NCBI GenBank assembly: GCA_039587445.1
Contig: JBDHIM010000012.1
Location: 1-62,592, forward strand
Length of the DNA stretch: 62,592 nt
Direction: 5' to 3'
DNA from: Gemmatimonadota bacterium
Lineage (GTDB): Bacteria; Gemmatimonadota; Gemmatimonadetes; Palauibacterales; Palauibacteraceae
The translations under genes were made by a program, and so were the position numbers. The notes beneath the pieces are model-generated. The model made no database searches and was not told the DNA's origin. It saw only the letters and a program-made list of their open reading frames with translations. This document shows positions 8,597 through 35,584 of this stretch, piece by piece (position 1 is the stretch's first letter; every line of letters begins with the position of its first letter).

Positions 8597-11104
8597 TTGA
8601 CGATCGATAGAATCGGCAGTCGACCGGACACACCGAAGCCGCCCGCCGCGAAGGTCGGGGACGATCACTCGGGCAGCGACGCGCCGAGCCTCGAGGCGCT
8701 ACCTCTTCCGTTGGTCATTCTGGCATCCGATGGAACCATCGAGCATGCCAACGGGGCAGCGAAGGCAGCGCTCGGAACGCCCTTACGGGAGCTGGAGGGC
8801 CATCCCTTCCGTGAGCTGATCGGCCGCTGCTGGCGGCCGGTCTTCCAGGCGGCGCTCTCCAACGTCAACGGGTCCGAGCGGGACGATGCCTCGGCCTCCG
8901 TCACGGTTTTGGACCTTCCTCTGCAGACGGAGTCTGGCGAGGTAAGATTCGGGATCTCGATCGCCTCTCACTCCACCGGAGATGAGGGGCGTATCCACCT
9001 TCTGCTTCACCCTTCATCCCCGAACCCGGGAAACGGCGGGAGTACGCCTCACGAGGCTGCGCTCGACGCCTCGGAGGATGCGATCCTCTGCACCGACCTG
9101 GACGGGAGGATCCTCTACTGCAACGGGCGCTTCCTGGAGATGTGGAAGATCCCGCGATCCGCTCTGAGCGATGGCCTGGAATCGGTGTTGTCGATCGCCA
9201 ATGAGCAGCTCGAAGACCCCGAAGCCTTCATGGAGATGACGGACCGAGAGGCGGGCGAGCCGGACCGGGAATCGAGAGACCTCCTCCAATTCCGCGACCG
9301 AAAGATCGTCGAGAGGTGCTCGAGGCCGCTGCCGATCGGCGATCACCTCGTCGGGCACGTGATCTCGTTCCGAGATGTCACGCGCCAGCAGCGAGCCCGG
9401 GAGACGATTCGGAGCTCCGAGCGCCGGTATCGTCTGCTCTTCGAGCGTAACGTGGCCGGCGTGTTCCGCGCCTCGCAGGACGGGGCGATCCTGGAGGTGA
9501 ACGACGCCTTCGCGCGCCTCGTCGGATACGAGGCGCCTCTGGAGGTGCAGGGAAAATCCATCACCGACTTTTACGCCTCGCTGCCGGAGCGTCGACGCTT
9601 CGGCGAAGACCTCGAACGAAACCGGGCGATCGCCAATCGGGAGGTTCAGTTCACACGGAAGGACGGCTCCACCATCTGGGTTCTTGAGAACTCGATCCTC
9701 GTCGAAGACCCTGAGCTGATGGAGCCGGTCATCGAGGGAACGATCGTGGACATCACGGCCCGCAAGCGCCTCGAGACGGAACTCGAGCGCATGGCTTACC
9801 ACGATCCGTTGACCGATCTGGCCAACCGGCGGCTCTTGGAAGAGCGGGCCCGGATGTCGCTCGCTTTCGCCGACCGTCACGGCATCCAGGCTGGCCTCGT
9901 CTATCTGGATCTCTCTCGCTTCAAGCGAATCAACGACACCCTGGGACACGAAGCCGGCGATGACGTGCTCGTCGAGGTGGCGAACCGGATTCGTTCCTGC
10001 CTCCGAGGCAGCGACACAGCATCTCGACTCGGTGGAGACGAGTTCGCATGCCTGCTGGCGGAGGTGGGCGGAGAGAGAGGTGCGCTCGCGGTCGCTCAAC
10101 GTATCGCCAACAGCCTGAGCGAACCGTTCGAGTTGGCCGACAGAACGCTTCACGTCGACGCACAGATCGGCGTGGCCATGTACCCCGAGCATGCCGCGGA
10201 CTTCGAGAGCCTCCTCGCCGCGGCCGACCGCGCCATGTACCGCACCAAGATCGACGGCAACCCGGCCATCGAGGTCTACTCCGCGACGCTGGACGAGTCG
10301 GTTCCCGATGTGATCGCCGAGGAGGAAGAGCTTCGCGAAGCCCTCGAGAAGGCGCAGCTCAGGCTCCACTACCAGCCCATTTTCAAGCTCGCCGATGGAA
10401 AGCTCGTCGGAGCCGAGGCCCTGGTCCGTTGGGATCACCCGTCACGCGGTCTCCTGGAAGCGAGCGAGTTCATCCGCACCGCCGAGCGAGGCGGCGTCAT
10501 CCGCCAGCTGGACAGATGGGTGGTCGAGGAGGCGCACGCGCAAGCAGTCCGGTGGGAGAAGCGCGAGCTTCCAGAATGGATCTCGGTCAACCAGTCGATC
10601 CAGACTCTTCGAGACCCGGAGGCGACGAGGTTCGTGCAGCAGCTGCTGGATCAGGGCCCGGTGCCACCGGGCCGTCTCGTTCTCGTTCTCGAGGTCAATG
10701 AAGGATTTGCCGTCAACAGCCCCGAGGCCGTCACGGCGCGGCTGGACAAGTTGAGGGAGATGGGAATCCGGATCGCCCTCGACAATTTCGGCACGGGTCA
10801 GGCGACGCTCGCCAACATCAAGCACTTCCCGGCCGACATCATCAAGCTCGATGGCTTCTTCGTGCGCGATCTGGGGACCAACTACGACAGCCGCAATCTC
10901 GCGCAAGCGATCATCCAGATGGGCCAGGCGCTAGGTGTGGCGATCATCGCCGAAAAGGTCGAAACGGAGGCCCAGTGTGAGTGGTTGAAGTCAGCGGGGT
11001 GTGACTACGTCCAGGGATACTACACCGGGCGACCCGTGCCGGCCGATGAGTTCATGGAGAGCGTCCGGGAGCGAACCGCCATCCCGAGGAATGCCTCTCC
11101 CTGA
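8597..11104 (+). CDS. PAS-PAS-PAS-GGDEF-EAL diguanylate cyclase/phosphodiesterase
   Basis: Three PAS-like repeats; AYHDPLTDLANR, SRLGGDEF, GAEALVRW, ALDNFGTG, IKLD, AEKVET, QGYY. Start position uncertain. Confidence 0.93.
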   Translation: MTIDRIGSRPDTPKPPAAKVGDDHSGSDAPSLEALPLPLVILASDGTIEHANGAAKAALGTPLRELEGHPFRELIGRCWRPVFQAALSNVNGSERDDASASVTVLDLPLQTESGEVRFGISIASHSTGDEGRIHLLLHPSSPNPGNGGSTPHEAALDASEDAILCTDLDGRILYCNGRFLEMWKIPRSALSDGLESVLSIANEQLEDPEAFMEMTDREAGEPDRESRDLLQFRDRKIVERCSRPLPIGDHLVGHVISFRDVTRQQRARETIRSSERRYRLLFERNVAGVFRASQDGAILEVNDAFARLVGYEAPLEVQGKSITDFYASLPERRRFGEDLERNRAIANREVQFTRKDGSTIWVLENSILVEDPELMEPVIEGTIVDITARKRLETELERMAYHDPLTDLANRRLLEERARMSLAFADRHGIQAGLVYLDLSRFKRINDTLGHEAGDDVLVEVANRIRSCLRGSDTASRLGGDEFACLLAEVGGERGALAVAQRIANSLSEPFELADRTLHVDAQIGVAMYPEHAADFESLLAAADRAMYRTKIDGNPAIEVYSATLDESVPDVIAEEEELREALEKAQLRLHYQPIFKLADGKLVGAEALVRWDHPSRGLLEASEFIRTAERGGVIRQLDRWVVEEAHAQAVRWEKRELPEWISVNQSIQTLRDPEATRFVQQLLDQGPVPPGRLVLVLEVNEGFAVNSPEAVTARLDKLREMGIRIALDNFGTGQATLANIKHFPADIIKLDGFFVRDLGTNYDSRNLAQAIIQMGQALGVAIIAEKVETEAQCEWLKSAGCDYVQGYYTGRPVPADEFMESVRERTAIPRNASP

Positions 11105-22837: not shown

Positions 22838-24016
22838 ATGAAAGTGGTCGTGGCCATGGACTCCTTCAAGGGGAGCCTTCGCGCGAGCACGGCTTGCGCG
22901 GCGGTGCGCGCCGGAATCCTGGACGCGCTTCCGGAGACCGAAGTCCTCATGTCGCCGATGGCGGACGGCGGGGAGGGCACGGCCGAAGCCGTGATCGCGG
23001 CGACCGGAGGTTCGTGGGTACCGGCGCAAGTCATGGGACCGCTGCCCGAGATGCGCGTGGAGGCTCGGTACGCCTGGCTGCCGGCGGGACATCCCGCGGG
23101 AGACGAGGCGAACGACCAACCGTTCGCCGGCGACGGGACCGGGGCCCTCGTGGAGATGGCGGTGGCGAGCGGACTCGAGCTTCTGGAGGACAGCGCGAGG
23201 AATCCGCTCCAGACGACCACGTTCGGCACCGGCGAGCTCCTGGCCGCCGCCGCGGCCCGCGGAGCCGACCGGCTTTGGCTCGCCATCGGAGGGAGCGCCA
23301 CCGTGGACGGAGGCACCGGCGCGGCCATGGCGCTTGGCTGGCGGTTTCTGGACCAGCGGCGCCGACCCGTCGGCTTCGGCGGTGGAGAGCTGGAGCGCAT
23401 CGCACACATCCAGGCGCCCGAGCCGGCCGGCCGAGCCCTCCCGCACATCACTGTCTTGTGTGACGTGGACAACCCGTTGGTCGGCGAGGAGGGCGCGGCC
23501 CGAGTGTTCGGGCCGCAGAAGGGGGCCGATCCCGAGATGATCGCAGCCCTGGAGCACGGGCTCGTCGGTCTGGCAGACGTCATCGAGCGCGATCTGGGCA
23601 AGGACGTCAGATACGTGCCGGGTGCGGGCGCGGCCGGCGGCCTCGGCGCAGGCGCGCTGGCGTTCTTCGATGCGGACCTCATGCCGGGTGTGGACGCGGT
23701 GATGGAGGCCACGGGCCTGGAGCAGGCGTTGTCGGGGGCGGACTGGGTCGTCACGGGTGAGGGCCGGTTCGACGAACAGTCGCTGCGCGGGAAGGTCGTG
23801 GCCGGCGTGGCTGAAGTCGCTCGCCGCTCGCGAGTTCCCGTGGCGGTGATCGCCGGATCCAGCACGATCTCCCCCGAGCGCGTCGCCGGCCTCGGGCTCG
23901 GCGCCCTGGAGGTCTCGGCGCCGCCGGACCTGAGCTTTGACGAGATCGTGAGCCGGGCCGAGGGTCTCCTGACCGAAGCGGCTCGCCGCTTCGCCGTCGA
24001 GAAGCTCGGGGAGTAG
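22838..24016 (+). CDS. glxK: glycerate kinase (GlxK/GarK family)
   Basis: MKVVVAMDSFKGSL, PMADGGEGT, GGSATVDGG, GAGAAGGLG, TGEGRFDEQS, GKV. Confidence 0.95.
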   Translation: MKVVVAMDSFKGSLRASTACAAVRAGILDALPETEVLMSPMADGGEGTAEAVIAATGGSWVPAQVMGPLPEMRVEARYAWLPAGHPAGDEANDQPFAGDGTGALVEMAVASGLELLEDSARNPLQTTTFGTGELLAAAAARGADRLWLAIGGSATVDGGTGAAMALGWRFLDQRRRPVGFGGGELERIAHIQAPEPAGRALPHITVLCDVDNPLVGEEGAARVFGPQKGADPEMIAALEHGLVGLADVIERDLGKDVRYVPGAGAAGGLGAGALAFFDADLMPGVDAVMEATGLEQALSGADWVVTGEGRFDEQSLRGKVVAGVAEVARRSRVPVAVIAGSSTISPERVAGLGLGALEVSAPPDLSFDEIVSRAEGLLTEAARRFAVEKLGE

Positions 24017-24062
24017 GCCTTGCTCCCGTTGCCCTGAGCGTCCGGACACGCATATTCGGTAC

Positions 24063-24116
24063 GTTAGGCCCACTCGGTATGGTAGGCCGCCTCAGAACGG
24101 TAGGCCGCATGGTAAG
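24063..24116 (+). repeat. three degenerate 18-bp direct repeats (core TAGGCC)
   Basis: TAGGCC at 24065, 24083 and 24101; GGTAGGCCGC is exact at 24081 and 24099. Confidence 0.6.
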
Positions 24117-24154
24117 GAGACTCATCGATACAGGACGACCGGAGATCTCTCAAG

Positions 24155-24868
24155 GTGAATAGGCTCCTCAAGACGACGGCTGTCTTGGCCCTCGCGGCAC
24201 TGACGTTTCAGCCCTCCTCCGGCCCCGCTCAGGAACCGACCAACCAGCGCATGTGGTCCCACTTCCTGGCCGCGGCCGACGTCCAGGCTGCCGTGATCCG
24301 CGGAGACCTCGAGGCCACCATGGAGGCCGCCACCTGGTTGGCGGAGTACGACGAGCCGGGCTTGCCCGACGGAGCCGAGGCGTTCTTGCGGGAGCTGCAG
24401 CGAGCCGCCGCTCGCGTCATCGAGGCCACGACCAGCGAAGCGGCCGGGGCGGCCACGGGACGCATCGCCGCGGCTTGCGGCTCCTGTCACCGCGAATTCT
24501 ACCCCGGGATGGAAACTACCAAGCTCGTCGAACCGCCTCCTGGAGAGGGCGACATCGCGGCGCATATGGCGCGGCACGGCTGGGCGGCCGACCGTCTGTG
24601 GGACGGCCTGGCCCTCCCCTCGAACGCGGCCTGGGAGGCCGGGGCCGACGCCTTCGCGGGCGTACCTCTGGCTACCGATGACCTCGCCTTCGACAATCCG
24701 GAGGGCGTACGGGCTCTGGCAAACCGCACCCACGAGCTGGGACGGCGCGCCGGCCTCGAGACGGAGCCGAGCCTGAGGGCGCGGACCTACGGCGAGCTGC
24801 TCTCCACCTGCGCAGCCTGCCACCAGATGACGGGCCAGCAGCCGGCGATCGAGAAGCTCGACTGGTAA
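24155..24868 (+). CDS. periplasmic di-heme c-type cytochrome (tandem class II/c'-like helical domains)
   Basis: Signal peptide; CGSCH and CAACH each lie at the C-terminal end of an all-helical repeat. Confidence 0.8.
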   Translation: MNRLLKTTAVLALAALTFQPSSGPAQEPTNQRMWSHFLAAADVQAAVIRGDLEATMEAATWLAEYDEPGLPDGAEAFLRELQRAAARVIEATTSEAAGAATGRIAAACGSCHREFYPGMETTKLVEPPPGEGDIAAHMARHGWAADRLWDGLALPSNAAWEAGADAFAGVPLATDDLAFDNPEGVRALANRTHELGRRAGLETEPSLRARTYGELLSTCAACHQMTGQQPAIEKLDW

Positions 24869-24875
24869 CGGCGTT

Positions 24876-25258
24876 CTAAAAGAACTGGTCGATCAGCACC
24901 GGATTGCCGTCCGGGTCGACCAGCATGATGCTGCCTGCGCCGGAAGTGCTCTCGTCCACCTCGGTCATCACCTCGATCCCCTGTTCCATCAGCGTTCGCT
25001 GGATCTCCCGGACGTCGGTGAACTCATCGAGCTGCTGCGTCCGGTTGTTGAGGCCCGGATTGAAAGTGAGGATGTTCCTGTCGAACATGCCATGGAAAAG
25101 GCCGATTATCGCCTCACCATTGATCAGGATCAGGTAGTTCTCTTCCTCCGAGCCGCCGGTGACTTCGAAGCCGAGTTTCTCATAGAACGCGCGTGAAACG
25201 CCCAGGTCCTTCACCGTAAGGCTAATTGAGAATGCGCCGAGATCTATCGTTTGCTCAC
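24876..25258 (-). CDS. VOC/glyoxalase family protein (5' end apparently frameshifted or non-canonical start)
   Basis: [47 protein letters not shown]. No in-frame canonical start precedes the conserved N-terminus. Confidence 0.85.
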
Positions 25259-25305
25259 TTTTTTGAAGCTGTCAGGATGATGGAGCCGTTGGTCCAGACT
25301 CGCCG

Positions 25306-25737
25306 TCAGCTCCGTTCCTCGCAATGGACGGTGCCGGGGGCCGTCAGGGTCGTTTGGACGTGAACCGGCAGGTTGGAGTTCACATCCCATCCCGCTGTGA
25401 GGCACTCGACGGCGCCCGACGTCGCGATCGCGTAGTAGGACCGCTCGCTGATCCAGCGGAGCGTGACGGTCACCCCGTCGCTCTCCCTGAAGTCCAGCTC
25501 TCTGAGGGTGAAGGCGTAGACGCCGTACCGGACGAGGTGGGCGACCTGGTCCCGGTGGAGCCGTTCCAGGTCGGTGCGCAGCGTCCGCTCCGGGGCGATC
25601 TCCTTGCTCGCGGGCTCGCCGGGAGAGAAGTCCGCCCCGCGCGAGCAGCCGGCCCCCAGCAGAGCAAACCAAAGGCAGCCGGCGCGCCACCGGCTCAACC
25701 CCACCGGTTCGACGCGCAGCAGTCGGACACCACTCAT
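25306..25737 (-). CDS. hypothetical lipoprotein with pilin-head-like domain
   Basis: Lipobox LLGAGC; ATGA-coupled to the upstream peptidase; RTDLERL...Y...L.F..SDGVTVT...YYAIAT...C pattern. Confidence 0.6.
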   Translation of the reverse strand: MSGVRLLRVEPVGLSRWRAGCLWFALLGAGCSRGADFSPGEPASKEIAPERTLRTDLERLHRDQVAHLVRYGVYAFTLRELDFRESDGVTVTLRWISERSYYAIATSGAVECLTAGWDVNSNLPVHVQTTLTAPGTVHCEERS

Positions 25738-27209
25738 TCGGCTTTGCGTAATCGCTCAGGGTAATCCGTGGACTCGAGCCATATCCGAAGATCGGCGTCC
25801 GCTCCCGGCAGATGCTCGAGGACGACCTCACGGAAGGAAGCCGCGTCCAACGACGGACGGTTGAACAGGTCCCGGGTGAAATCGAAGAAGGCGGCCTTCC
25901 CCATCCGACTGCGCAGATAATCGAAGAAGAGAAGAGCGCGGTCGGCAAGCACGAAGCGATCCTTGTAGCGAGAAAGGTCCCCTGGTGTGAGCTCCAGAAG
26001 TGGCTTCTCGGCGGGAAGCCTGCGGTCGCGACGGTCCGTCCCGCTCTCTCGCTTGTCCAGATAACTCTCCTGCACCTCAATCATGTACCCCTCATACCAC
26101 GCCGCTCCGGCGATCTCCGCGAGCAGGGGTAGGTGGAAGTACGCCGGAAAGCCCTCTATGACCAGCGCCCACAGAGGATCGGCGAGCGCTGTGGGCACCT
26201 GGACAAAGGGATGGATCAACTCGTGGGCCAGCGTGCGTGTCGCCCAGCTGCTCTGCCATCCGCGGGGATCCACGAGCGCCGTGGCCGGATCGAGCTCGGA
26301 CCACACCGAGCCGGAGATGCCTACGACGTTGTAGCTCGAGATGTCTCCGTAGCGCGGCATCTGCATCACGTGTACCTGTCCTGGAGCTGCCGCGGCCCGG
26401 TATCGAGCCCGCGCGAGCGACGTGATGCGTCGAGTGAAACCGAGGATGGTTCCCGCCCTCTCTCGAGAGGCCGAATCCGGAAGCGAGTAAACGAAGTAGC
26501 CGTCCTCTTCGTGGAGTTTGAACGGGCGAGCGGTCATCTGAGCCGCGAAGATGGGCACATCCTTCGCTACCCATGTCGAGACCCGCTCGTCGCCCTCGAT
26601 CTCTTCCTTCACGCGCTCGCCGACGAACACGGGCACGAGATCGATGGGCGTTCGGAGGGTGACGCGAGAGAAAGACACGTTGTATTCATCGGCCCTGGCT
26701 TCGAGAAAAACGGGGAACCAGAGCGAGTAACCGTAGGAGCGTAGGTAGACGCCGTCATCGGCGATCCTCATGTAGTCGGACGGTGATCGGGCTCGGGATG
26801 GATTGAAGGGTCCGGCGTACTCGATGAGAAGGCGTGTGAGAGGTTGTCCTAGCGGATCCACGACGACGCGCGTCGCGACCAACGAGTAGTCCGAGCGGTA
26901 GTAGACCTTCTCCTGCTCGAAGGGCAACGGCGTCCCATCTCCCTCGCCCCGATGGACGGCGAGCACCTGCAGCTCGCCGTGCAGATAGAAGCTGATCTCG
27001 TCATCCGGCGAGCTGCCAGAGTCGAGGTCCACGGTTGCGAGACCTCGCAGCGCGGCGCTGTCCGGCCTGAATGACACGTCCAGCTCGTAACTCTCCACTC
27101 GAGCTGGTTGACCCAACGCGGAGATCGGCTCGAGGGAGGAAAGGAGCACGAGCATCGGCAGAAGCACCCGCGCGAAACGAGCGGCAGCAGCATAGGGGCG
27201 ATGGAGCAT
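25734..27209 (-). CDS. secreted M1/gluzincin-like metallopeptidase
   Basis: Signal peptide; LAHELIH (HExxH) with a downstream IEGFPAY glutamate; N-terminal beta domain (YELDVSFRP). Confidence 0.85.
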   Translation of the reverse strand: MLHRPYAAAARFARVLLPMLVLLSSLEPISALGQPARVESYELDVSFRPDSAALRGLATVDLDSGSSPDDEISFYLHGELQVLAVHRGEGDGTPLPFEQEKVYYRSDYSLVATRVVVDPLGQPLTRLLIEYAGPFNPSRARSPSDYMRIADDGVYLRSYGYSLWFPVFLEARADEYNVSFSRVTLRTPIDLVPVFVGERVKEEIEGDERVSTWVAKDVPIFAAQMTARPFKLHEEDGYFVYSLPDSASRERAGTILGFTRRITSLARARYRAAAAPGQVHVMQMPRYGDISSYNVVGISGSVWSELDPATALVDPRGWQSSWATRTLAHELIHPFVQVPTALADPLWALVIEGFPAYFHLPLLAEIAGAAWYEGYMIEVQESYLDKRESGTDRRDRRLPAEKPLLELTPGDLSRYKDRFVLADRALLFFDYLRSRMGKAAFFDFTRDLFNRPSLDAASFREVVLEHLPGADADLRIWLESTDYPERLRKAE

Positions 27210-27290
27210 TGCTGGAGACCTCCGGTGTTGGCTGCGGTCATGCTTCTGGGAATTGGATGGGCCCGGTCGGTCAATCGTTGGCTCCGAGAG

Positions 27291-27308
27291 ATGCCGGAGG
27301 AGGAACTC
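27291..27308 (-). repeat. att-like copy of the tRNA-Leu 3' end (attR)
   Basis: ATGCCGGAGGAGGAACTC matches 31554-31571 ATGCCGGAGGAGGGACTC at 17/18 positions. Confidence 0.75.
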
Positions 27309-27434
27309 CTGATCTCGTCGTAGGACGCCTGCCTCACCGCGACTCCCGAACCCAGACGTACCTGCACCTAGGGGATTCGAACGAGATCAGGAGCGTCGAG
27401 TGACAGAGGCGAGAGGGGCAGTCTCGATTGACGC

Positions 27435-27815
27435 TCAGGCTTCTGCTCGCCTCACAAAGTGAAAATACCCGAATCCCAGTGCGAGAAGCAGATAAACTGC
27501 GACTGTTGACCAGCCAAGTTCGTTCTCGACCCCACCGAGTTGTGCGAGCAACGCAACGATGAAAGCGATGGCATTGCCAACAAACATCGAAAGCAGGATC
27601 GCACGGCGAGCCACCGAGTCGGCCGCATTCCTGGCAGACCATGTTAGGACCGCGAAGGCGATGAGTGCAGCGCCGACGAGCTGGAACAAATACTTCAACG
27701 CGGCATCGGCTGAATGACCATACTGCGCCAACACCTGGCCAGGCCAGAGGACGAAACTGACGCCGAACACTGCTGCCGCAATTGCGTTGATAACCATCAG
27801 AGTACGGAGCTTCAT
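27435..27815 (-). CDS. hypothetical 4-TM membrane protein (126 aa)
   Basis: Four hydrophobic helices; GGAGG RBS; lower GC than the backbone. Confidence 0.8.
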   Translation of the reverse strand: MKLRTLMVINAIAAAVFGVSFVLWPGQVLAQYGHSADAALKYLFQLVGAALIAFAVLTWSARNAADSVARRAILLSMFVGNAIAFIVALLAQLGGVENELGWSTVAVYLLLALGFGYFHFVRRAEA

Positions 27816-27884
27816 TGGGACGAACCTCCCTTCCTGGGGGGTGGCGCCAAGGCGAGGCTAGTGATGGCTTTCGCTAGAAAGCAG

Positions 27885-27918
27885 AGGCCGGCCCCGAAGG
27901 AACCGCCCCGCTCAGCAC
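27885..27918. repeat. REP/terminator-like palindrome, copy 1
   Basis: Core GGCCCCGAAGGAACCGCCCC (27890-27909) is 19/20 identical to 30719-30738. Confidence 0.55.
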
Positions 27919-28019
27919 TTCCCGAAGCCCAGGCAGGAACCACGAGAACTCGCTTCGCCACGATCTCCTCCAGCCGCCGCTTCGCCACCAGGTGGCCTGC
28001 TAAACCTCTTTCGTAACCC

Positions 28020-30515
28020 TCACTGGATGTAGCCGAGAGCGCGCAGCGTCTCGAGCTGCTCGGCCGTCAGCGTCACCTCGCCCGAGGGAGTGAAGTGTTG
28101 AGCCAAGGCCTGATGCGCCTCCCACTGCCCCTCGAGGAAGGTGGTGTACTTCTCCACCAGGTCGGGCCGTTCCTCGTGGAGGCTGCGCAAGGCGGAGGGA
28201 TCACTCCAGAGGTCGAACAGCAACAACGGCACCGGACGCTGTCGATCCTCCGGCAGGTCGGGATCGGGATTGAGCTCCAGCGACGCGCCCCACCAGCCGT
28301 CGATCACCTCGATCATGCCGCTGAACTCCCCCGTCTCGTGGTCCAAAGTGAACTGGTCCAGGATGATCGGTCGCGGCTCCCAGCCGGCCTCACCCAGCAG
28401 GAGCGGGGCCAGGGACTGCCCCTGCAGGACCTCGGGAAGCGGCAGGTCGGCCAGGTCGAGCACAGTGGGTAGCACATCGATCATCGAGACTGGCTCACTG
28501 AACCGCTGGCCCGGGGCGATGTGCCCCGGCCACACGAAGATGAGCGGGATCCTGCTGATCGAGGGCCGCAGCATCGGTTGGCACCACCGGGGCGGCAGCG
28601 AGTCGAGGATAGCGATGCCCATGTCGTCCATCGCGGCCCGGATGGCATGGTCCGCACCGATGATAAGCAACGTGTTCTCCCATTCGCCCTCGGTCTTGAG
28701 ACGCTCGACGAACCGCCCGATCTGCCAGTCGTTGTGGGCCATGGTCTCGTCGTACATGCCCTGATGGAGAGCGAAGAACTCGACCCTGCTGAGACCGGTC
28801 TTCTCGTAGGCTTCCGAGTAGACGCCGTGGCCACCCGCCTCTCGGAGGCGGTCGTTCCATTCCTTCCATGTCTTCTTCTGCTCGGGACCGACGAAGAGAC
28901 CGGAAAAGGGTGCTACCGCAGGGAAATCCTCGTGCACATCAACGGTCTGGAAGTGCGCCCAGTAAGGCGCGGCGGGATAGCTGTCGCGCCATCGCCAGAA
29001 CCCGTCGTGCAGGTATCTTGACGATTCCGAGTAGTTCTCTTCTCCGAAGTACGTGAACTCCGCCCAATCCTCTTGGAGCAAGTCGACGCCGCGCTCGAGC
29101 CCGCTCAGCGTGCCAGCGTTGGGGTTGGCGATGAACACCGCCGTCTGGTAGCCGGCTCGGTGGAAATGCTGCGCCATCGTCGTCGCTTGCTCCGGCACCT
29201 TTTCCGTCCAGTTCAAACCACCCAGCACGCTATGCTGCAGCGAGGTCATGAAGGAAGCGGTAGATGGTTTCGTCCAGGAGGAGTTGCTGTAGGCGCGCTC
29301 GAACATCGCGCCTTCGGCCGCCAGTCGCTCCAGATTGGGCGTAGTGCGACGGTTGTAGCCATACAGGCTCAGATAGTCTGCGGCGCCGCCATCGATAACG
29401 TAGAAGATGACGTTCGGTCGCCGGGCGGCACCTGCCCCAGTCAGGGTCGGCGCCGACCAGAGCGCAACGGTGCCGGCCGTCTCGGAATCGGCCTCGAGCG
29501 ACAGGGTCACGGTACGCCCGGCCAGGTGCGACAGGTCCACCGAGCGCTGCCCCCAGTGCTCTCTGTCGCCGTACGTCTCCTCGAGCAGAATCTCGGTCTC
29601 GCCGCCGGGCGGCGCGGCGGTGATTCGGAAGGTGACGGGGGAATCGTCAGCCAGCACGCCGAGTCCCAGGTCGAGACGGCCGGCCTCCGGCACCCGGATC
29701 CTATACTCCAGCCGTCCCGGCGCGTGCGTGTAGAGCGTGCCGTGATAAGCGCGGTCGCGGATCTCGGGTCGCACGCCCGCAGGCGCCGCGCTGTAATTGG
29801 CCGCCTTGGGGATCACCTGAACGGAAAGGATGTCGATGCTCGCCTGCTCATCAGCGCTGAACCAGAGGCCTAGCTGCTGCCATGAGCCCTCCCACTCTCC
29901 CCCCGACCAGTCGGCCCGCAGCAGGTACGTCTGCACCGAGCCGTCGTTGAACACATCGAGCCCCTCGCCGAAGAAGCGGTACGGGAAAGGACCGTCCGTG
30001 GCCGTTGCCGAACCCTCCTTCAGGTTGAATCCGAGCCCGAGTTCCTCGACACCCTCCGACGCTCGCGCTCGCACGAGGACATACGACCAGTCCTCGAGAC
30101 TCCAGTCCGGGACGTCGACGTAGATTCCGCCTACGAGCACGCGGCGGTCGTCCCACCATCTGACGAAGGTGTTGGCCTCGGTCAGCGTAAGCTGCAGGGC
30201 GTCGTCGACGTACGTCACGCGGGCCGGCTCGATCTCCTGCCGCCAGGGGCGCACCGGCCTCCACTCCGGCTGCGGCTCATCGAAGCGCCACTGCACCGAG
30301 GTCGGCACCTCCGCCGGCACCTCGGAACCGACGAGAGTCGCCGCTTCGAAATGCTCCTCGAGGTGAAGAGGACGCTCGGCCGTGAGGACCGGCGAGTCGG
30401 ACGGCGAGCCGGAGCCGGAGCAGCCGACGGGCAGAAGCGTGAGAAGAGCAAGCGGAAGGATCCGAGAGACAACGCGACCGAAAATGAGCGCGGGAAGCGC
30501 GAGAAGTCGCTTCAT
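28020..30515 (-). CDS. sulfatase-like hydrolase/transferase (alkaline phosphatase superfamily) with large N-terminal beta domain
   Basis: RPNVIFYVIDGG, TTPNLERLA, SWTKPSTAS, GADHA, RIPLIF, VSMIDVLPT, C-terminal LRALGYIQ; lipobox LPVGC. Confidence 0.85.
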   Translation of the reverse strand: MKRLLALPALIFGRVVSRILPLALLTLLPVGCSGSGSPSDSPVLTAERPLHLEEHFEAATLVGSEVPAEVPTSVQWRFDEPQPEWRPVRPWRQEIEPARVTYVDDALQLTLTEANTFVRWWDDRRVLVGGIYVDVPDWSLEDWSYVLVRARASEGVEELGLGFNLKEGSATATDGPFPYRFFGEGLDVFNDGSVQTYLLRADWSGGEWEGSWQQLGLWFSADEQASIDILSVQVIPKAANYSAAPAGVRPEIRDRAYHGTLYTHAPGRLEYRIRVPEAGRLDLGLGVLADDSPVTFRITAAPPGGETEILLEETYGDREHWGQRSVDLSHLAGRTVTLSLEADSETAGTVALWSAPTLTGAGAARRPNVIFYVIDGGAADYLSLYGYNRRTTPNLERLAAEGAMFERAYSNSSWTKPSTASFMTSLQHSVLGGLNWTEKVPEQATTMAQHFHRAGYQTAVFIANPNAGTLSGLERGVDLLQEDWAEFTYFGEENYSESSRYLHDGFWRWRDSYPAAPYWAHFQTVDVHEDFPAVAPFSGLFVGPEQKKTWKEWNDRLREAGGHGVYSEAYEKTGLSRVEFFALHQGMYDETMAHNDWQIGRFVERLKTEGEWENTLLIIGADHAIRAAMDDMGIAILDSLPPRWCQPMLRPSISRIPLIFVWPGHIAPGQRFSEPVSMIDVLPTVLDLADLPLPEVLQGQSLAPLLLGEAGWEPRPIILDQFTLDHETGEFSGMIEVIDGWWGASLELNPDPDLPEDRQRPVPLLLFDLWSDPSALRSLHEERPDLVEKYTTFLEGQWEAHQALAQHFTPSGEVTLTAEQLETLRALGYIQ

Positions 30516-30523
30516 TGGGATCC

Positions 30524-30663
30524 TCCAAGTGCATATCTACTACTTCCGGTCGCAAGACCGTGGGGGGACTTCTATCGCTCAGAGGCGTCGTGGCCTCGTT
30601 TCATGCACTTGGATATGAAGCGTACAGTATGGCGGAGGGGACCCTGCCATACGCAACTGTACG
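30524..30663 (-). promoter_or_regulatory. candidate structured leader RNA sequestering the RBS
   Basis: An 11-bp perfect stem (30524-30534/30603-30613) encloses two 5-bp hairpins; a second hairpin lies at 30621-30663. Confidence 0.45.
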
Positions 30664-30705
30664 GGTTCTAGGAGGGCGGGATCAGGAGCGTGGAGGGGCC
30701 GCGTT

Positions 30706-30747
30706 GTGCTGAGGGGGCGGCCCCAAAGGAACCGCCCCCTCTTAGCC
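30706..30747. repeat. REP/terminator-like palindrome, copy 2
   Basis: GCTGAGGGGGCGG...CCGCCCCCTCTTAGC hairpin immediately after the stop of 30767-31333. Confidence 0.6.
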
Positions 30748-30766
30748 TACTGCCGCGTTGTTGTGG

Positions 30767-31333
30767 TCAGCGCTCTCTGCTTTCCAGCGGAATCATGATG
30801 TGAGCATACGGCGTGTTCGGCCACATGATCCACGGCCCGCCATTCAGATGATCCGTAGAGATGTTCGCCAACAGCTTCTTGTCCGGCACGACGATCATGA
30901 GGTGTGGGCCCACGTCGGTGACCCAATCCTCTGGCCCAGTCGGCTCTGTCGCGTATGGATCGCTGTTGCTGACTGGCGTATCGCCCTGGAGCATGTAGGC
31001 GAAGCCGATCTCAGTGTACGTGGGCTCCGTTTTGTCCACGTAGGCGTGCAAGAAGTCCATCCACGCCTCGGTAAGGCACCATGGATCGGTGCCCGGAGTT
31101 TCTGCACGGTCGGGGAGGCAAGTCCATTCATTCGTGCCCTCCCGAAGCACGTCCATGTTCCAGTCCAGGACGGTTGCGTCAGCCGAGATGGACGCAGGCG
31201 CTGCGCTCATGGCACTCTTGATCTGCGCCTTGAGTTCCGGCGACGCGTATTCCGCCTCTTGTGCCTGGAGCACGGGCGGTGCAGCGGCGGCAAGTAGCAG
31301 GGCAGCTAGAGTGGGGAGATACTTGGGGTACAT
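30767..31333 (-). CDS. secreted hypothetical protein (188 aa)
   Basis: Signal peptide (AAPPVLQA); WTC...PWC, YMLQGD, GPHLMI, PWIMW..TPYAHIMIP; GGAGG RBS. Confidence 0.85.
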   Translation of the reverse strand: MYPKYLPTLAALLLAAAAPPVLQAQEAEYASPELKAQIKSAMSAAPASISADATVLDWNMDVLREGTNEWTCLPDRAETPGTDPWCLTEAWMDFLHAYVDKTEPTYTEIGFAYMLQGDTPVSNSDPYATEPTGPEDWVTDVGPHLMIVVPDKKLLANISTDHLNGGPWIMWPNTPYAHIMIPLESRER

Positions 31334-31554
31334 CGTGACCTCCTTGAGGCATGCATCTCTGTGATGAAGGAGTCGAGCGATCTATATGGGGGAGGCTCGC
31401 GGCCTCCTGTAAACCGAGGAAGAACCCCTTGCAGCCTAATGGTCGAACCAATCCATGCGAAAGGGCACGGCGGGCCTCTCTTGCGAGGACGAGATCGGGA
31501 GCGGGGTGGAGGGGATCGGTTTTGCTACCTCGGCACCATGCCGGTAAGTCCTTA

Positions 31555-31638
31555 TGCCGGAGGAGGGACTCGAACCCTCAAGGGATTGCTCCCACCGGAT
31601 TTTGAGTCCGGCGCGTCTGCCAGTTCCGCCACTCCGGC
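31555..31638 (-). tRNA. tRNA-Leu(CAA)
   Basis: GCCGGAGTGGCGGAACTGGCAGACGCGCCGGACTCAAAATCCGGTGGGAGCAATCCCTTGAGGGTTCGAGTCCCTCCTCCGGCA; long variable arm; CCA not encoded. Confidence 0.97.
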
Positions 31639-31751
31639 CCGTGGGTCTAACCTATAAACTAGCAGCTAGGTAGAAGGTCCGCCTCCTGTCGCTGCTCACC
31701 TAGGTGGGTGGGTTTCCGGGTTGGGTTCTTCAGATTCCTCGACTCCTCACC

Positions 31752-33072
31752 TCACCGCCGCCCTGCCGTACTCGCGGCCACCTGCTTGATCACCGCACCG
31801 CCTTTCATCACGAAGCGCACGTCGCCGAGCACAGCCACGTCGTCGAGGGGGTTGGTGGGCACGGCGATGAGATCGGCGAAAGCACCGGGCGTCAGCGTGC
31901 CGACGTGGCCGTCCATCTGCATTAATTCGGCGGCGGTCAGCGTAGCGGATTGGACGGCTTGCAGCGGCGTCATCCCATAGGCGACCATCCGCTCGAAATC
32001 GATGGCGTTGTCGCCGTGCGGGAGCGCCCCGGCGTCGGTGCCGTAGGCGATCTTGACGCCTTTCTCGGTCGCGCGGCGGATGGTCCGGGCATGGCCTGCG
32101 TAACTCGCCCCATTCCTCGCGCGGGCCATCGGGGATGTAGACGGAGATCGTGGGAACCCAAAAGGTGCTGTTAGCAACCATCATGTCGAGCGCTTCGTCA
32201 TCGAGGAAGAACCCGTGCTCGATGGATCGGACACCGGCGCGGATGGCGTTTTTGGCTCCCGGTCCGCCGTAGGCATGCGCCGCCACCGGCGTGCGGAACC
32301 GCGCCGCCTCGTCCACCACCAGCTTGAGATCCTCGTAGGAGAACTGGGGCAACGGCTGCATGGTGCGTGGATCGATGTTACGCGTGGTGCCGGTGGCGTA
32401 GATCTTGATCCAGTCCGTTCCATACTTCACCTGGCGGCGCACCTCGGCCACGAGCGCGGCGGGGCTGTCAGCGAGCGCGCCGAACTGCGGTACGTCGATC
32501 TGCGGAGCCAGGCCGTTCTGGTTCATGTAGCCGCCGGTGATGCTGATCGCGAGCGTCGCCACCTGCATGCGCGGCCCCGGCACGAGGCCGTCGTTGATCC
32601 CGTCGCGGACGGCCACATCGGCCCAATCAGCCCCCTCCGAGTCGATATCCCGGATCGTGGTGAAGCCGGCTTCGAGCGTCGCCCGCACCGCGTTGACGGC
32701 CTCGACGGTGCGATACGGAATCGATTTATACAGAATGGGGTTGTTTTCCGCGTAATCCGGTTGCATGCACACGTGCGTGTGTGCGTCGATGAGGCCGGGC
32801 AGCACCACGTAATCGCTCAGATCGATGACCTCGGCCTCCGGCGGGATCCGCACCTGCGGCCCGACGGCCTCAATCCGCTCGCCCCGGATCAAGACGACGG
32901 CGTCGGCGATCAGATTGCCGGTTTCGACTTCTAACAGCGCCCCCGCTCGCAAGGCCACCACGCGCTCTACCGACGCCTCTGTTTGCGCCCGTGCCTCCTC
33001 AGCCAGCAACACACTCAGCATCAGCAGAATCAGCAATCCACGGATCACGACGATAGAGATAAGGCGGTTCAC
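31752..33072 (-). pseudogene. secreted metal-dependent amidohydrolase (Xaa-Pro dipeptidase-like), frameshifted near 32097
   Basis: DAHTH, WIKIY, AHAYG and SIEHG in one frame; KGVKIAYGTDAG...ADLIAV...FVMKGG in another. Confidence 0.85.
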
Positions 33073-33208
33073 AACGGGCCTCCGAGGATGAGATGTTTGA
33101 GTGTTATAGTGTTTTGGTGTTTCAGCTCTTCTTCAGCTCGAACACTATACCACTCAGAGACTGTTTAAATCTTGGGTCTGCAGATGAGCGTGATGAGACT
33201 TCGAAAAC

Positions 33209-33258
33209 GCCGAAAGATCGCGCGCGTCCGGCGCGTCTGCCAGTTCCGCCACTCCGGC
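33209..33258 (-). pseudogene. tRNA-Leu 5' fragment (33 nt exact) plus degenerate acceptor 3' strand
   Basis: 33226-33265 is identical to 31606-31645; gap-free similarity continues to about 33340/31720. Confidence 0.8.
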
Positions 33259-33422
33259 CCGTGGGCCTAACTAATAGACTATCAGTGGAGTAGAAGGTCC
33301 GCCTCCGCGGTTCACTTCATCAGGTGGGCGGGTTTCTGGGCGGGCTATAGCAACGCCTATACGCTGGTAGGCTCTATAAGCTGCCGTACAATTCCTTTCG
33401 AAAAACGATCCGGATCGTGTGG

Positions 33423-34436
33423 CTAGTCGGGCTGCAGCGGCTCGGCTGGACCTTCCGCCCCGTATCGGAACGCGCGCAGGCGATCCGCCTCTCTCGACAG
33501 GAGTAGCAGTTGGGTCGCCGGAGCGTTCAGATCGACCGCCAAAAGCGCCCCCTCGTAGCGACGCGCGATCTCATCGGTCGGCGTGTGGGCGACGACGTGA
33601 AGCTCGCTCTCGAATCGGTCGAGCACCCGGCGCAGCTCCTCGTGGAGCGTATCGGCCTGGACGTAGCTCCGATGCCAAAAGACGCTGTTCTCGCCGAAGA
33701 AGAAGTGGATACGGCGCTCGAGCGCCGTCGAGTCCATAACGATGCGAGGAAGGAGGGTATCGGGTGGAAGACTCCACCGGTAAAAGAGCTCCTCGGACAT
33801 GAATGCGGCCAACGTGTCGTCGAACGCCTGCAGAGAATAGGTGGCGAAGTCGCGTCCGACGCCGCCGTGAGCCAACAGCACGTCACCGATCCGGATTAGA
33901 CCCGGCTTCGTGGCCAACCAGGTTCCGAGCACGGAGCTGCGAATGTCGAACAGTCGCCCGTAGGGCGTTCCGTGCAATTCGGCGATGAGCTGCTCCTTCT
34001 CCGACACGTAGCGGAGGTCGTTGGTGAGGACCATGATCTCGTGATTGCCGAGCACGACGTGGACCCGCCCGCCGGCGGCCTCCGCCTGTCTCTCGAGGCC
34101 GTAGATGAACCAGAGAGTGCGGGTAACGTCCGATCCGCGATCGAAAAGGTCGCCCAGGAAGACGAGATGGCTTCTCCCACCGCTCCAGCGTGCGTCCGAA
34201 TCGATCAGACCCGCGTTCTTGAGAACGGCGGTCAGCGTGTCGAACTCGCCGTGAACGTCCCCGAGCACGAAGAGAGAGTCGACCGGCCCGAAACCTGTGG
34301 GCGCACGCTCAAGTACCGGCCAGATAGTCGTCTGGTGCCGATCCTCATCGCTGCCGACCGCGCCGTAGCGAAGCGTAAGCGGACCGTCCGCCGGCCTCCG
34401 AAACGACGCGGAGTGGGCCCGGCTGGTTGTGGAACG
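33423..34436 (-). pseudogene. metallophosphoesterase (Shewanella-like PPP phosphatase), 5'-truncated
   Basis: GDVHG, GDLFDRG, GNHE, HGG and AHT motifs. The frame stays open and protein-like for about 55 codons above the first GTG but has no start before TAA 34437-34439. Confidence 0.8.
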
Positions 34437-34942
34437 TTACTTCCGACGACGTGTGGGACAAAGACCGGTTCGAGGGGGATACGGTGTACGCGCGCCACTT
34501 TGCGAACCTGAACCTCTTCACCTTCCTCATCCGTCACAGCGACGCGAATCAGGGCAACCTGCTCATCTCGAGCATCAGTTCGAATCCCCGGGTCTTCGCC
34601 GTGGACAACGGTGTCGCCTTCAGCCGCAGGGAGGAGAGCGACCGAGGCACGAAGTGGCGGAGGCTCACCGTGAAGCGGCTGCCGCGGAAAACGGTCGATC
34701 GTCTTCGAGCGCTGACCCGCGAGGACCTGGACCGGCGCCTATCGGTCGTCGCGCAGTTCCAGCTCGTCGGCGACCAGCTCGTGCCGGTGACACCCACCGG
34801 GCCGATCGAGGCCAGCGGGGGCATGCGCAGGAGAGAAGACGTCGTGCAGCTCGGCCTCACCGACTACGAGATCGGCCAGATTTGGGGCCGGATCCAGAAA
34901 GTGCTCGACGAGGTGGACGAGGGGAAGATCGCGCTCTTTTAA
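34424..34942 (+). pseudogene. C-terminal fragment of an atypical kinase-like protein
   Basis: HSDANQGNLLI (D-x4-N catalytic-loop-like) and FAVDNGVAF (DxG-like); no N-lobe or credible start. Confidence 0.55.
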
Positions 34943-35104
34943 TCACAACCCACTGGCGGCGAAGCATGGTACTGGCGCATGCCTCGCACATGAGAAAGAC
35001 CCGATGGCTCTCCGCTGGTTCCTGCGTACTATCGGCAGAGTAGATGGTCCACTCTAGCGGTGCCGCCACTTGCGCCCGCGCTGAACTTCTCCGGCGACCA
35101 CGGG

Positions 35105-35584
35105 TTACGGAAACCGCTTTACCTGCCGATTGTGGCGCCGGATGAGCCACAGCCCCGCGATAATCAGAAACGGTGCCAACGGGACCATGAGCCCTATCAG
35201 GGTGCGGTCGTCGCTGGCTTGCTCTTCGTAGTCGACGATGCGCCGCCCGGCTTGCTCTGCCTGCCAGACTCGTTCACTGCCCAGACCCTTGATGGCCGGC
35301 GCGACCCAAAGCACGATCCCCGCACCTATTGCGATCTCGTCCGGATCGGTCTGACCGAAATTGTAGTCGCGTGAGTCCCCGTCGCGGTGGGCCTGAACGA
35401 CGGTGTGTCGGCAATCGCCGGCCGAGCGTCGGCAAAACTTGATGGGGTCACGCCGGACATCTTCGACGACGCTGACGCGCCGCTTCAGCTCTTCGAAGTC
35501 GGGCACTGGCACCAGCCAGTAGGCGAGCAGAAGAGTGACGCCGATGATGAGTAGCCCGACACCGACGCCTCGTTTCTTGAGCAT
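35105..35584 (-). CDS. hypothetical 2-TM membrane protein with periplasmic Cys pair (159 aa)
   Basis: N- and C-terminal TM helices; FCRRSAGDC; 45 bp downstream of the DUF5916 stop. Confidence 0.7.
   Translation of the reverse strand: MLKKRGVGVGLLIIGVTLLLAYWLVPVPDFEELKRRVSVVEDVRRDPIKFCRRSAGDCRHTVVQAHRDGDSRDYNFGQTDPDEIAIGAGIVLWVAPAIKGLGSERVWQAEQAGRRIVDYEEQASDDRTLIGLMVPLAPFLIIAGLWLIRRHNRQVKRFP

Follow-up and report, generated by a model that had tools for sequence, protein, structure and literature searches.

A probable decayed remnant of mobile DNA, lacking an integrase, at the 3' end of tRNA-Leu(CAA) in a marine Gemmatimonadota genome

Genes and features of the islet

We analyzed a small islet located beside the 3' end of the tRNA-Leu(CAA) gene in a metagenome-assembled genome (MAG) of a marine Gemmatimonadota bacterium. 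The window, meaning the whole stretch of DNA that was analyzed, is an entire contig of 62.6 kb; its source MAG comprises 3.19 Mb in 251 contigs and is 89% complete. The islet segment spans 27309-31553 and carries three genes, all on the minus strand, between the intact tRNA gene and a partial copy of that gene's 3' end. An earlier reading of the sequence alone (hereafter the sequence-only reading) had described these genes as encoding a protein with four transmembrane (TM) segments, a sulfatase-like protein and a secreted protein, with no recombinase among them. Domain searches bore this description out, and no recombinase domain was detected in any open reading frame (ORF) of 27309-31553; the segment is accessory DNA. 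The features of the islet and its borders are as follows.

25734-27209, minus strand: gene for a secreted 491-amino-acid (aa) HExxH protein; chromosomal-side flank gene, outside the islet; 87% aa identity with its G010 counterpart
27291-27308, minus strand: relic of the tRNA 3' end (tRNA nucleotides (nt) 67-84 plus 1 nt, 17/18 identical), identified by sequence match and by comparison with G010
27435-27815, minus strand: gene for a 126-aa protein with four predicted TM segments and a DUF8292 match; lowest GC content of the region, 55.9%
28020-30515, minus strand: gene for an 831-aa lipoprotein (lipobox) with a sulfatase-fold (alkaline-phosphatase superfamily) domain, Pfam PF00884 at 5e-35
30767-31333, minus strand: gene for a 188-aa protein with a signal peptide and no family match; multi-copy family in the genus
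31526-31553, minus strand: short flank immediately 3' to the tRNA that contains a small hairpin; homologous to the flanks after tRNA-Leu 3' halves in G010, G003, G006 and an IMG/VR contig
31555-31638, minus strand: intact tRNA-Leu(CAA), called by ARAGORN and by Rfam RF00005 (58 bits)

A genome-wide search revealed a single copy of tRNA-Leu(CAA) in the assembly. This intact gene is the left attachment-site (attL) anchor of the islet, which thus has at one end the intact target tRNA that marks a genomic island integrated in a tRNA gene (tDNA).

Window positions 23000-35500 were compared by blastn with the 12 genomes of the genus, referred to below by G numbers. The closest relatives of the three genes were separate from one another, at unlinked loci, and homology ended at the borders of single-gene modules. 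Homologs of the 188-aa gene were found at unlinked loci in G011:C3 (85%) and G002:C294 (81%). Orthologs of the sulfatase-like gene were likewise found at other loci, in G011:C227 (89%, leader included), G008 (81%), G002 (77%) and G009 (73%), the last of these located between tRNA-Arg and another tRNA-Leu. For the 126-aa gene, the only DNA homolog among the genomes and loci compared was in the Gemmatimonadota MAG M8-62_Bin_238, with 82.7% identity over exactly 27433-27837. Judged by these alignments, the islet is a mosaic whose three genes have separate origins. The products are lineage-specific envelope proteins. Because the 831-aa protein has T-K-P-S-T where sulfatases have C-x-P-S-R (alignment to 6ust_A), it is unlikely to be a formylglycine sulfatase. 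A stretch covering the leader and the first ten codons of its gene (30485-30622) was found again at about 84% identity in G002:C224, G002:C104 and M8-62_Bin_238, and likewise before the ortholog in G011:C227; the leader is therefore itself a repeated unit.

The GC content of the islet is 63.2% compared with 65.9% for the genome, which places it at the 5th percentile of 4.2-kb windows. The sequence-only reading had noted lower-GC segments, and this held for the 126-aa (55.9%) and 188-aa (60.5%) genes but not for the sulfatase-like gene, which is native-like at 65.4% with a GC3 of 83%. An extra ATGCCGG had also been noted just past the tRNA, and it is present at 31538-31544. It forms one arm of the small hairpin in the conserved flank, where positions 31541-31607 matched the tRNA-Leu flank loci listed above at 90-97%, and the same position reads CGGGATC in the homologous flanks of other genomes. 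We found no evidence that it is a repeat related to attachment (att) sites.

A displaced piece of the tRNA gene and its breakpoint

On the plus strand, ATGCCGGAGGAGGGACTC at 31554-31571 (the tRNA 3' end) and ATGCCGGAGGAGGAACTC at 27291-27308 are identical at 17 of 18 positions, lie in direct orientation and are separated by 4263 bp, so that re-reading the two sites confirmed the repeat on which the sequence-only reading had been built. The number of matches to the 18-mer expected by chance with up to two mismatches was 0.02 per window (100 dinucleotide shuffles). In a local-alignment scan of the window, the 18-mer scored 31 compared with 27 for the best chance match; with so small a margin, the sequence statistics alone are moderate and it is the comparative evidence that settles the tRNA origin. 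With at most one mismatch, it occurred at three sites in the whole 3.19-Mb assembly, namely the tRNA itself, the copy at 27291-27308 and a relic on contig C18. With four errors tolerated, degenerate look-alikes were common; a possible relic upstream of the 143-aa gene in G003 (GACTTCCTCCTGTGGCAT, 14/18) is within this noise and was not used as evidence.

Comparison with the G010 lineage provided a breakpoint. Starting at 23000, contig G010:C49 aligned collinearly with the window at 85% identity; the alignment ended exactly at 27308, the position at which the comparative test suggested in the sequence-only reading called for homology to end. Beyond the shared flank, G010:C49 continued with TGCCGGAGGAGGGACTC (tRNA nt 68-84), a 39-bp filler replacing two T-loop bases, and tRNA nt 29-64. 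This was followed by 1.55 kb with two small plus-strand genes, a second tRNA 3' half (nt 32-84) and other DNA to the contig end. The same arrangement was identified in a second MAG of the G010 lineage (L152). Because the orthologous site in G010 and L152 holds a longer tRNA relic, the tRNA origin of the 18-mer is confirmed. On the strength of these alignments, the 18-mer is a displaced piece of tRNA-Leu and an att-derived scar, whichever model of its junction holds; it is read as an eroded right attachment site (attR) that marks the old meeting point of the tRNA and the chromosomal flank.

Other congeners revealed short gaps at the same place. The intact tRNA was located 150-820 bp from a conserved 143-aa lipoprotein gene (25306-25737 in the window) in the complete, one-contig genome of G009, in G002:C46 and in G006:C119, and a DNA search identified no homolog of window 25652-31553 between the two genes in any of these three. 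In the window, the 491-aa and 143-aa genes overlap, the stop codon of the former sharing ATGA at 25734-25737 with the start codon of the latter. The gap in G009, G002 and G006 is too short to house the 491-aa gene, and no copy of it was detected by DNA search in G009, G002, G006, G003 or G011; the gene adjoining the tRNA relic in G011 is unrelated to it. We also looked for an older tRNA relic at the 25651 boundary, which would fit the 491-aa gene as an earlier insertion, and none was found.

The inner side of the relic is occupied by a further feature.

27306-27349, plus strand: truncated copy, in opposite orientation, of the repeated upstream motif described below (exact 14-mer CTCCTGATCTCGTC), fused to the relic and followed by a 26-nt piece, defined by alignment to L071

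Positions 27306-27319 correspond to L071 6655-6668, and 27324-27349 to L071 6828-6853 (92%). The counterparts in G010 are the motif and leader of the first plus-strand module beyond the relic, at distances of 215 nt and about 390 nt from it. The simplest reading of this arrangement would be a deletion junction with CTC microhomology: the ancestor would have had a longer tRNA 3' half followed by a plus-strand module, and deletions in the window's lineage would have removed tRNA nt 29-66 and the intervening DNA. Alternatively, a T-loop crossover may have left a naturally short repeat, as in an integrase-bearing island on G010:C4. Williams is said to have described sublocation classes of tRNA-gene integration in 2002. 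Integration at the T loop is known for Ms6-type integrases (PMC1762012).

Integration at tRNA-Leu(CAA) and motif-tagged cargo

Comparison across the genus indicates that tRNA-Leu(CAA) is an integration hot spot in these marine Gemmatimonadales. Halves of the gene that start at the anticodon loop were found in G003, G006, G010 and G011, and the sequence directly after the last base of the tRNA differed in every species. A scan of viral contigs for the repeated motif also revealed a complete phage-like element of 10.44 kb, which extends from an intact tRNA-Leu(CAA) to a 55-nt 3' half (nt 30-84) in IMGVR_UViG_3300027997_000005 (L099, 1207-11730). This element encodes a 409-aa tyrosine integrase (1389-2618, minus strand), DUF3102 and HTH_36 proteins, a prohead protease and a Tad-like protein. 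No homolog of its element-specific genes was identified in the genome that holds the window; only the Tad-like protein found paralogs there.

Linkage to tRNA genes was general among the integrases of the genus. All of the non-Xer tyrosine recombinases that we located adjoin tRNA genes (Arg-TCG twice, Gly, Ala, Pro, Arg-CCT, Leu-CAA and Ser-TGA), the integrase linked to Ser-TGA being the one in the window's own genome. A PF00589 search of this genome returned three tyrosine recombinases: XerC-like, XerD-like and the tRNA-Ser-linked integrase. The third, of 278 aa, is at 5907-6866 of contig C196 (L090) and ends 43 nt after tRNA-Ser(TGA); no repeat of the tRNA-Ser end was found on this 8-kb contig, which looks like another tRNA-linked island. 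Two congeneric islands carry an integrase together with cargo of the same kind as the islet. In G002:C155, a tRNA-Pro is followed by four motif modules, an HTH_36 protein, a P4-type integrase and a 51-nt 3' half. In G010:C4, an integrase begins 18 nt after tRNA-Arg and is accompanied by three motif modules, with a 19-nt T-loop-to-3'-end copy 7.5 kb away. Since integrase-bearing islands carry the same modules, the window islet looks like such an island minus its integrase.

The tRNA also collects cargo on its 5' side, as the sequence-only reading had supposed; this is seen in the window and in a prophage of G002.

33226-33280, minus strand: copy of the tRNA 5' half plus 22 nt of leader (55 bp, 93%), bounding a 5'-side insertion with an amidohydrolase gene

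The G002 prophage is located 5' of tRNA-Leu(CAA) at 6431-14780 of L063 (G002:C46) and carries a 419-aa divergent tyrosine integrase (8298-9557), an S78 (prohead) protease and a terminase. Members of this integrase family on G002:C108, G002:C69, G002:C303 and G010:C4 are 34-51% identical and all lie beside tRNA genes. Five recombinases form a divergent family of their own, and NCBIfam names none of the G002:C46-type integrases.

The modules that make up the islet share a motif and a hairpin, distributed as follows.

27381-27401, minus strand: weak third motif copy, 170 nt upstream of the 491-aa gene (nhmmer E=0.004)
27885-27912, minus strand: second GC-rich hairpin copy, after the stop of the sulfatase-like gene; matches many loci in the genus
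30666-30702, minus strand: motif copy (GGCCCCTCCACGCTCCTGATC...), 150 nt upstream of the sulfatase-like gene (nhmmer E=7e-7)
30714-30746, minus strand: GC-rich, terminator-like hairpin (GGGGGCGGTTCCTTTGGGGCCGCCCCC) following the 188-aa stop codon, one of 12 copies in the genome
31478-31511, minus strand: diverged motif copy with a 3-nt insertion, 145 nt upstream of the 188-aa gene (nhmmer E=1.5e-4)

The motif, GGCCCCTCCACGCTCCTGATCTCGTCCTC, is about 37 nt long, often continues as CGACCATACGCCGCAGAATAGAGGTTCTCCCGACTTGCGG, and is pyrimidine-rich with anti-Shine-Dalgarno-like CCTCC/CTCCT. Homology of the sulfatase-like module with G011:C227 stops at the 5' edge of the motif (30703). Searches with nhmmer revealed 31 copies in the genome; those on any one contig share a single orientation, and they form arrays with spacings of 0.5-2.5 kb; the 27 further copies outside the window are on contigs C9, C21, C41, C54, C55, C99, C110, C116, C123, C154, C172, C176, C216, C227, C237 and C239. 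Copies are located 60-250 nt upstream of co-oriented genes and also in divergent intergenic regions. The genes that follow are functionally unrelated, encoding an erythromycin esterase, a GNAT protein, two beta-lactamase-fold proteins, a Tad protein, an amidohydrolase, an RTX protein, a PD40 peptidase, a Ser/Thr kinase, an esterase, a solute-binding protein and a pyrroloquinoline quinone (PQQ) propeller. Among congeners, the number of copies with at most three mismatches ranged from 0 (G009) to 69 (G002), and control hits were zero. An exact 22-mer of the motif occurred mainly in Gemmatimonadota MAGs and in a few short contigs binned to other phyla, and contigs often break at the motif. The hairpin, GGGGCGGTTCCTTCGGGGCCGCCCC, has a UUCG-type loop and no T tract, and may be an element of the terminator or repetitive extragenic palindrome (REP) type.

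The most economical account of the motif would be a reused promoter or leader. The sequence-only reading had a companion idea, in which the GACGAGATCRGGAGC motif served as integrase arm sites at the ends of the islet; this idea does not survive the finding that the motif is genome- and genus-wide and stands upstream of unrelated genes. Apart from the tRNA, no Rfam family matched the motif or leader (E<=1). The reverse strand reads 'EDEIRSVEG' in many copies, but the surrounding ORFs are short and unrelated, and a coding role was rejected. Compared by eye, attC, dif and sigma-54 or extracytoplasmic function (ECF) promoter consensus sequences gave no convincing fit. Motif-tagged accessory genes are a by-product of this work that is possibly of more interest than the islet, and they make the expression and exchange of island cargo testable.

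Origin of the islet

We favor, at a probability of about 0.65, the reading that 27309-31553 is a decayed, integrase-less remnant of mobile DNA that had entered the 3' portion of tRNA-Leu(CAA) before the lineage split from at least one sister species. Site-specific integration by a tyrosine recombinase would have rebuilt the tRNA at one end and left the displaced original 3' end beside the old chromosomal flank, next to the 491-aa gene, at the other. Later losses would have taken the recombinase and the greater part of the element, and a deletion ending in the T loop would have cut the displaced tRNA piece to 18 nt. The space would then have been refilled and rearranged with single-gene modules, each made up of upstream motif, leader, ORF and GC-rich hairpin, drawn from a pool whose members also occur in congeners as cargo on integrase-bearing tRNA islands. 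The islet would now be a fixed chromosomal region with three envelope or secreted proteins rather than an active mobile element. The decayed island that the sequence-only reading had offered as one of two options fits this comparative evidence.

The islet resembles the tRNA-gene-integrated islands and islets mapped by Islander (PMC4383910) in having an intact tRNA at one end, a direct repeat at the far end that is a displaced 3'-end fragment beginning in the T loop, and cargo between them. Its content is also variable across relatives, with a breakpoint at the repeat (homology with G010 ends at 27308, and G009, G002 and G006 have short gaps). Unlike those islands, it has no integrase, its repeat is 18 nt with one mismatch, its modules are mosaic and it is fixed in the species. 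The case adds a documented example of a tRNA gene as a long-lived collecting point in an uncultured marine Gemmatimonadales genus, and it would illustrate a sequence of serial integrations, recombinase loss, erosion of the att scar and turnover of cargo.

Several observations weigh against this account. As the relic is only 18 nt long, a natural short T-loop repeat is indistinguishable from an eroded 3' half. The interruption in the G010 relic falls at this T-loop position too; it leaves some weight with the T-loop crossover, and under the deletion model it has to be put down to coincidence or to a fragile site. Since 3' halves in other species are followed by the short flank that also adjoins the intact tRNA, the first insertion may have had another polarity or extent. 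Since the MAG is 89% complete and in 251 contigs, a cognate integrase may lie on unassembled or unbinned DNA. Fixity was judged from assemblies, and rare excision may occur.

Fixation within the species was assessed by looking up the identical 491-aa protein, which was found on six contigs of other conspecific MAGs. Five of them cover the locus, and the islet is present in every one, with unchanged gene order and 99.8-99.98% identity; no empty site was seen among them. The sixth contig ends at 27234, short of the islet. Differences were limited to small intergenic indels, one of 32 bp at 31492-31523 in one MAG, which removes part of a motif copy, and one of 62 bp at 27955-28016. In a motif array elsewhere in the genome, gene order was likewise identical across eight contigs, which came from different samples. 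Together, the five filled sites and the eight identical arrays indicate no turnover of the islet or its modules within the species.

These data bear on the other option of the sequence-only reading, namely that the islet is still a functional non-autonomous element for which an integrase encoded elsewhere recombines the 18-bp repeat with the T-loop/3' end of the tRNA. The nearest model is the cis-mobilizable element (CIME), which keeps functional att sites and is mobilized by a resident integrative and conjugative element (ICE), as with ICESt1 and its CIME in Streptococcus thermophilus. The islet is likewise an integrase-less segment with att-derived bounds beside a hot spot, and the tandem 3' halves in G010 recall accretion. 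The direct repeat begins in the T loop, a known crossover position (Ms6-type, PMC1762012), the integrase-bearing island on G010:C4 has a similarly short repeat, and the assembly is incomplete. We nevertheless consider trans mobilization unlikely. Unlike the sites of a CIME, the far site has been worn down to 18 nt, one of them mismatched, and it meets a truncated module leader, also seen in G010, at what looks like a deletion scar. No cognate integrase was found in the genome, nor any element-specific gene of the one complete tRNA-Leu element identified; the content is a mosaic of separate origins, and no population polymorphism was seen, with five of five conspecific sites filled.

A second alternative attributes the islet to cassette-type recombination, in which genes are placed singly at the ~37-nt motif (with the hairpin), as at attC sites or in Xer-dependent dif modules, and the tRNA relic is incidental. 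The same-orientation arrays among the 31 copies, the range of 0 to 69 copies with near-perfect conservation, the unrelated downstream genes, the end of module homology at the motif edge and the contig breaks at the motif would all suit this model, as would a 47-nt duplication in G003. This duplication was seen in L073 (G003:C93, 158-415), where a boundary sequence (CCCTGCTCGCATCTGACCTTGC...GCCGTACTGAGCGGG) stands on either side of a piece of about 160 nt that contains the end of an element together with a tRNA-Leu 3' half and 18 nt of flanking sequence. The arrangement has the appearance of an insertion or a recombination event at the border of a module. Integron cassettes and clusters of attC sites lacking integron integrases (CALINs) are similar in their same-orientation single-gene arrays, conserved site and GNAT, esterase and beta-lactamase-fold functions. 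They differ in that the islet system has no IntI (no integron integrase was found, the recombinases scoring at most 56 bits against the TIGR02249 cut-off of 265), and the recombinases near the arrays are of diverse tRNA-linked phage and island types. Read by eye from alignments, the motif core is linear and pyrimidine-rich without self-complementarity and forms no attC-like paired R/L-box hairpin. It stands 5' of genes that reach 850 aa, 60-250 nt upstream and also between divergent genes, as a promoter or leader would. The stable gene order in eight contigs argues against shuffling in the species, and the motif has no Rfam match. On balance, cassette-type placement appears improbable. The related proposal that motif and hairpin together form the recombination or mobilization site of an undescribed, genus-specific module system, which would load single genes into tRNA islands and would have filled the islet, is similarly doubtful. 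Mobile promoters reused upstream of unrelated genes (PMC3575422) offer a parallel in their near-identical sequence of ~37 nt (up to ~80 nt) positioned 60-250 nt upstream of non-homologous genes across species; in contrast to them, the motif occurs in island-type arrays of 0-69 copies paired with a hairpin, and its promoter role is putative.

Finally, it is very improbable that the 18-mer is a chance or convergent match in ordinary variable intergenic or accessory DNA with no link to tRNA integration: the match is short, its margin is 31 versus 27 and four-error look-alikes are common, but only 0.02 matches are expected, all three genome sites with at most one mismatch are tRNA-derived, G010 holds a relic of nt 29-84, and the alignment of G010 and L152 contradicts this explanation.

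The relic on contig C18 (L065, 5310-5364) is a further 3' piece of tRNA-Leu(CAA), with 23 exact nt and part of the variable arm. It is preceded by AT-rich DNA and lies between corA and a TrkA-C-like gene on a 5.7-kb contig without mobile genes. We considered this contig as the missing end of the island and rejected it, as it carries housekeeping genes only (MsrP-like, sigma-54 regulator, MscS and CorA). The 18-mer, the 23-nt piece on C18 and the 55-nt 5' piece are partial, non-functional tRNA pieces with no essential difference from the tRNA gene fragments left by mobile elements (PMC9897764), and in annotation all three are to be treated as tRNA fragments, not genes.

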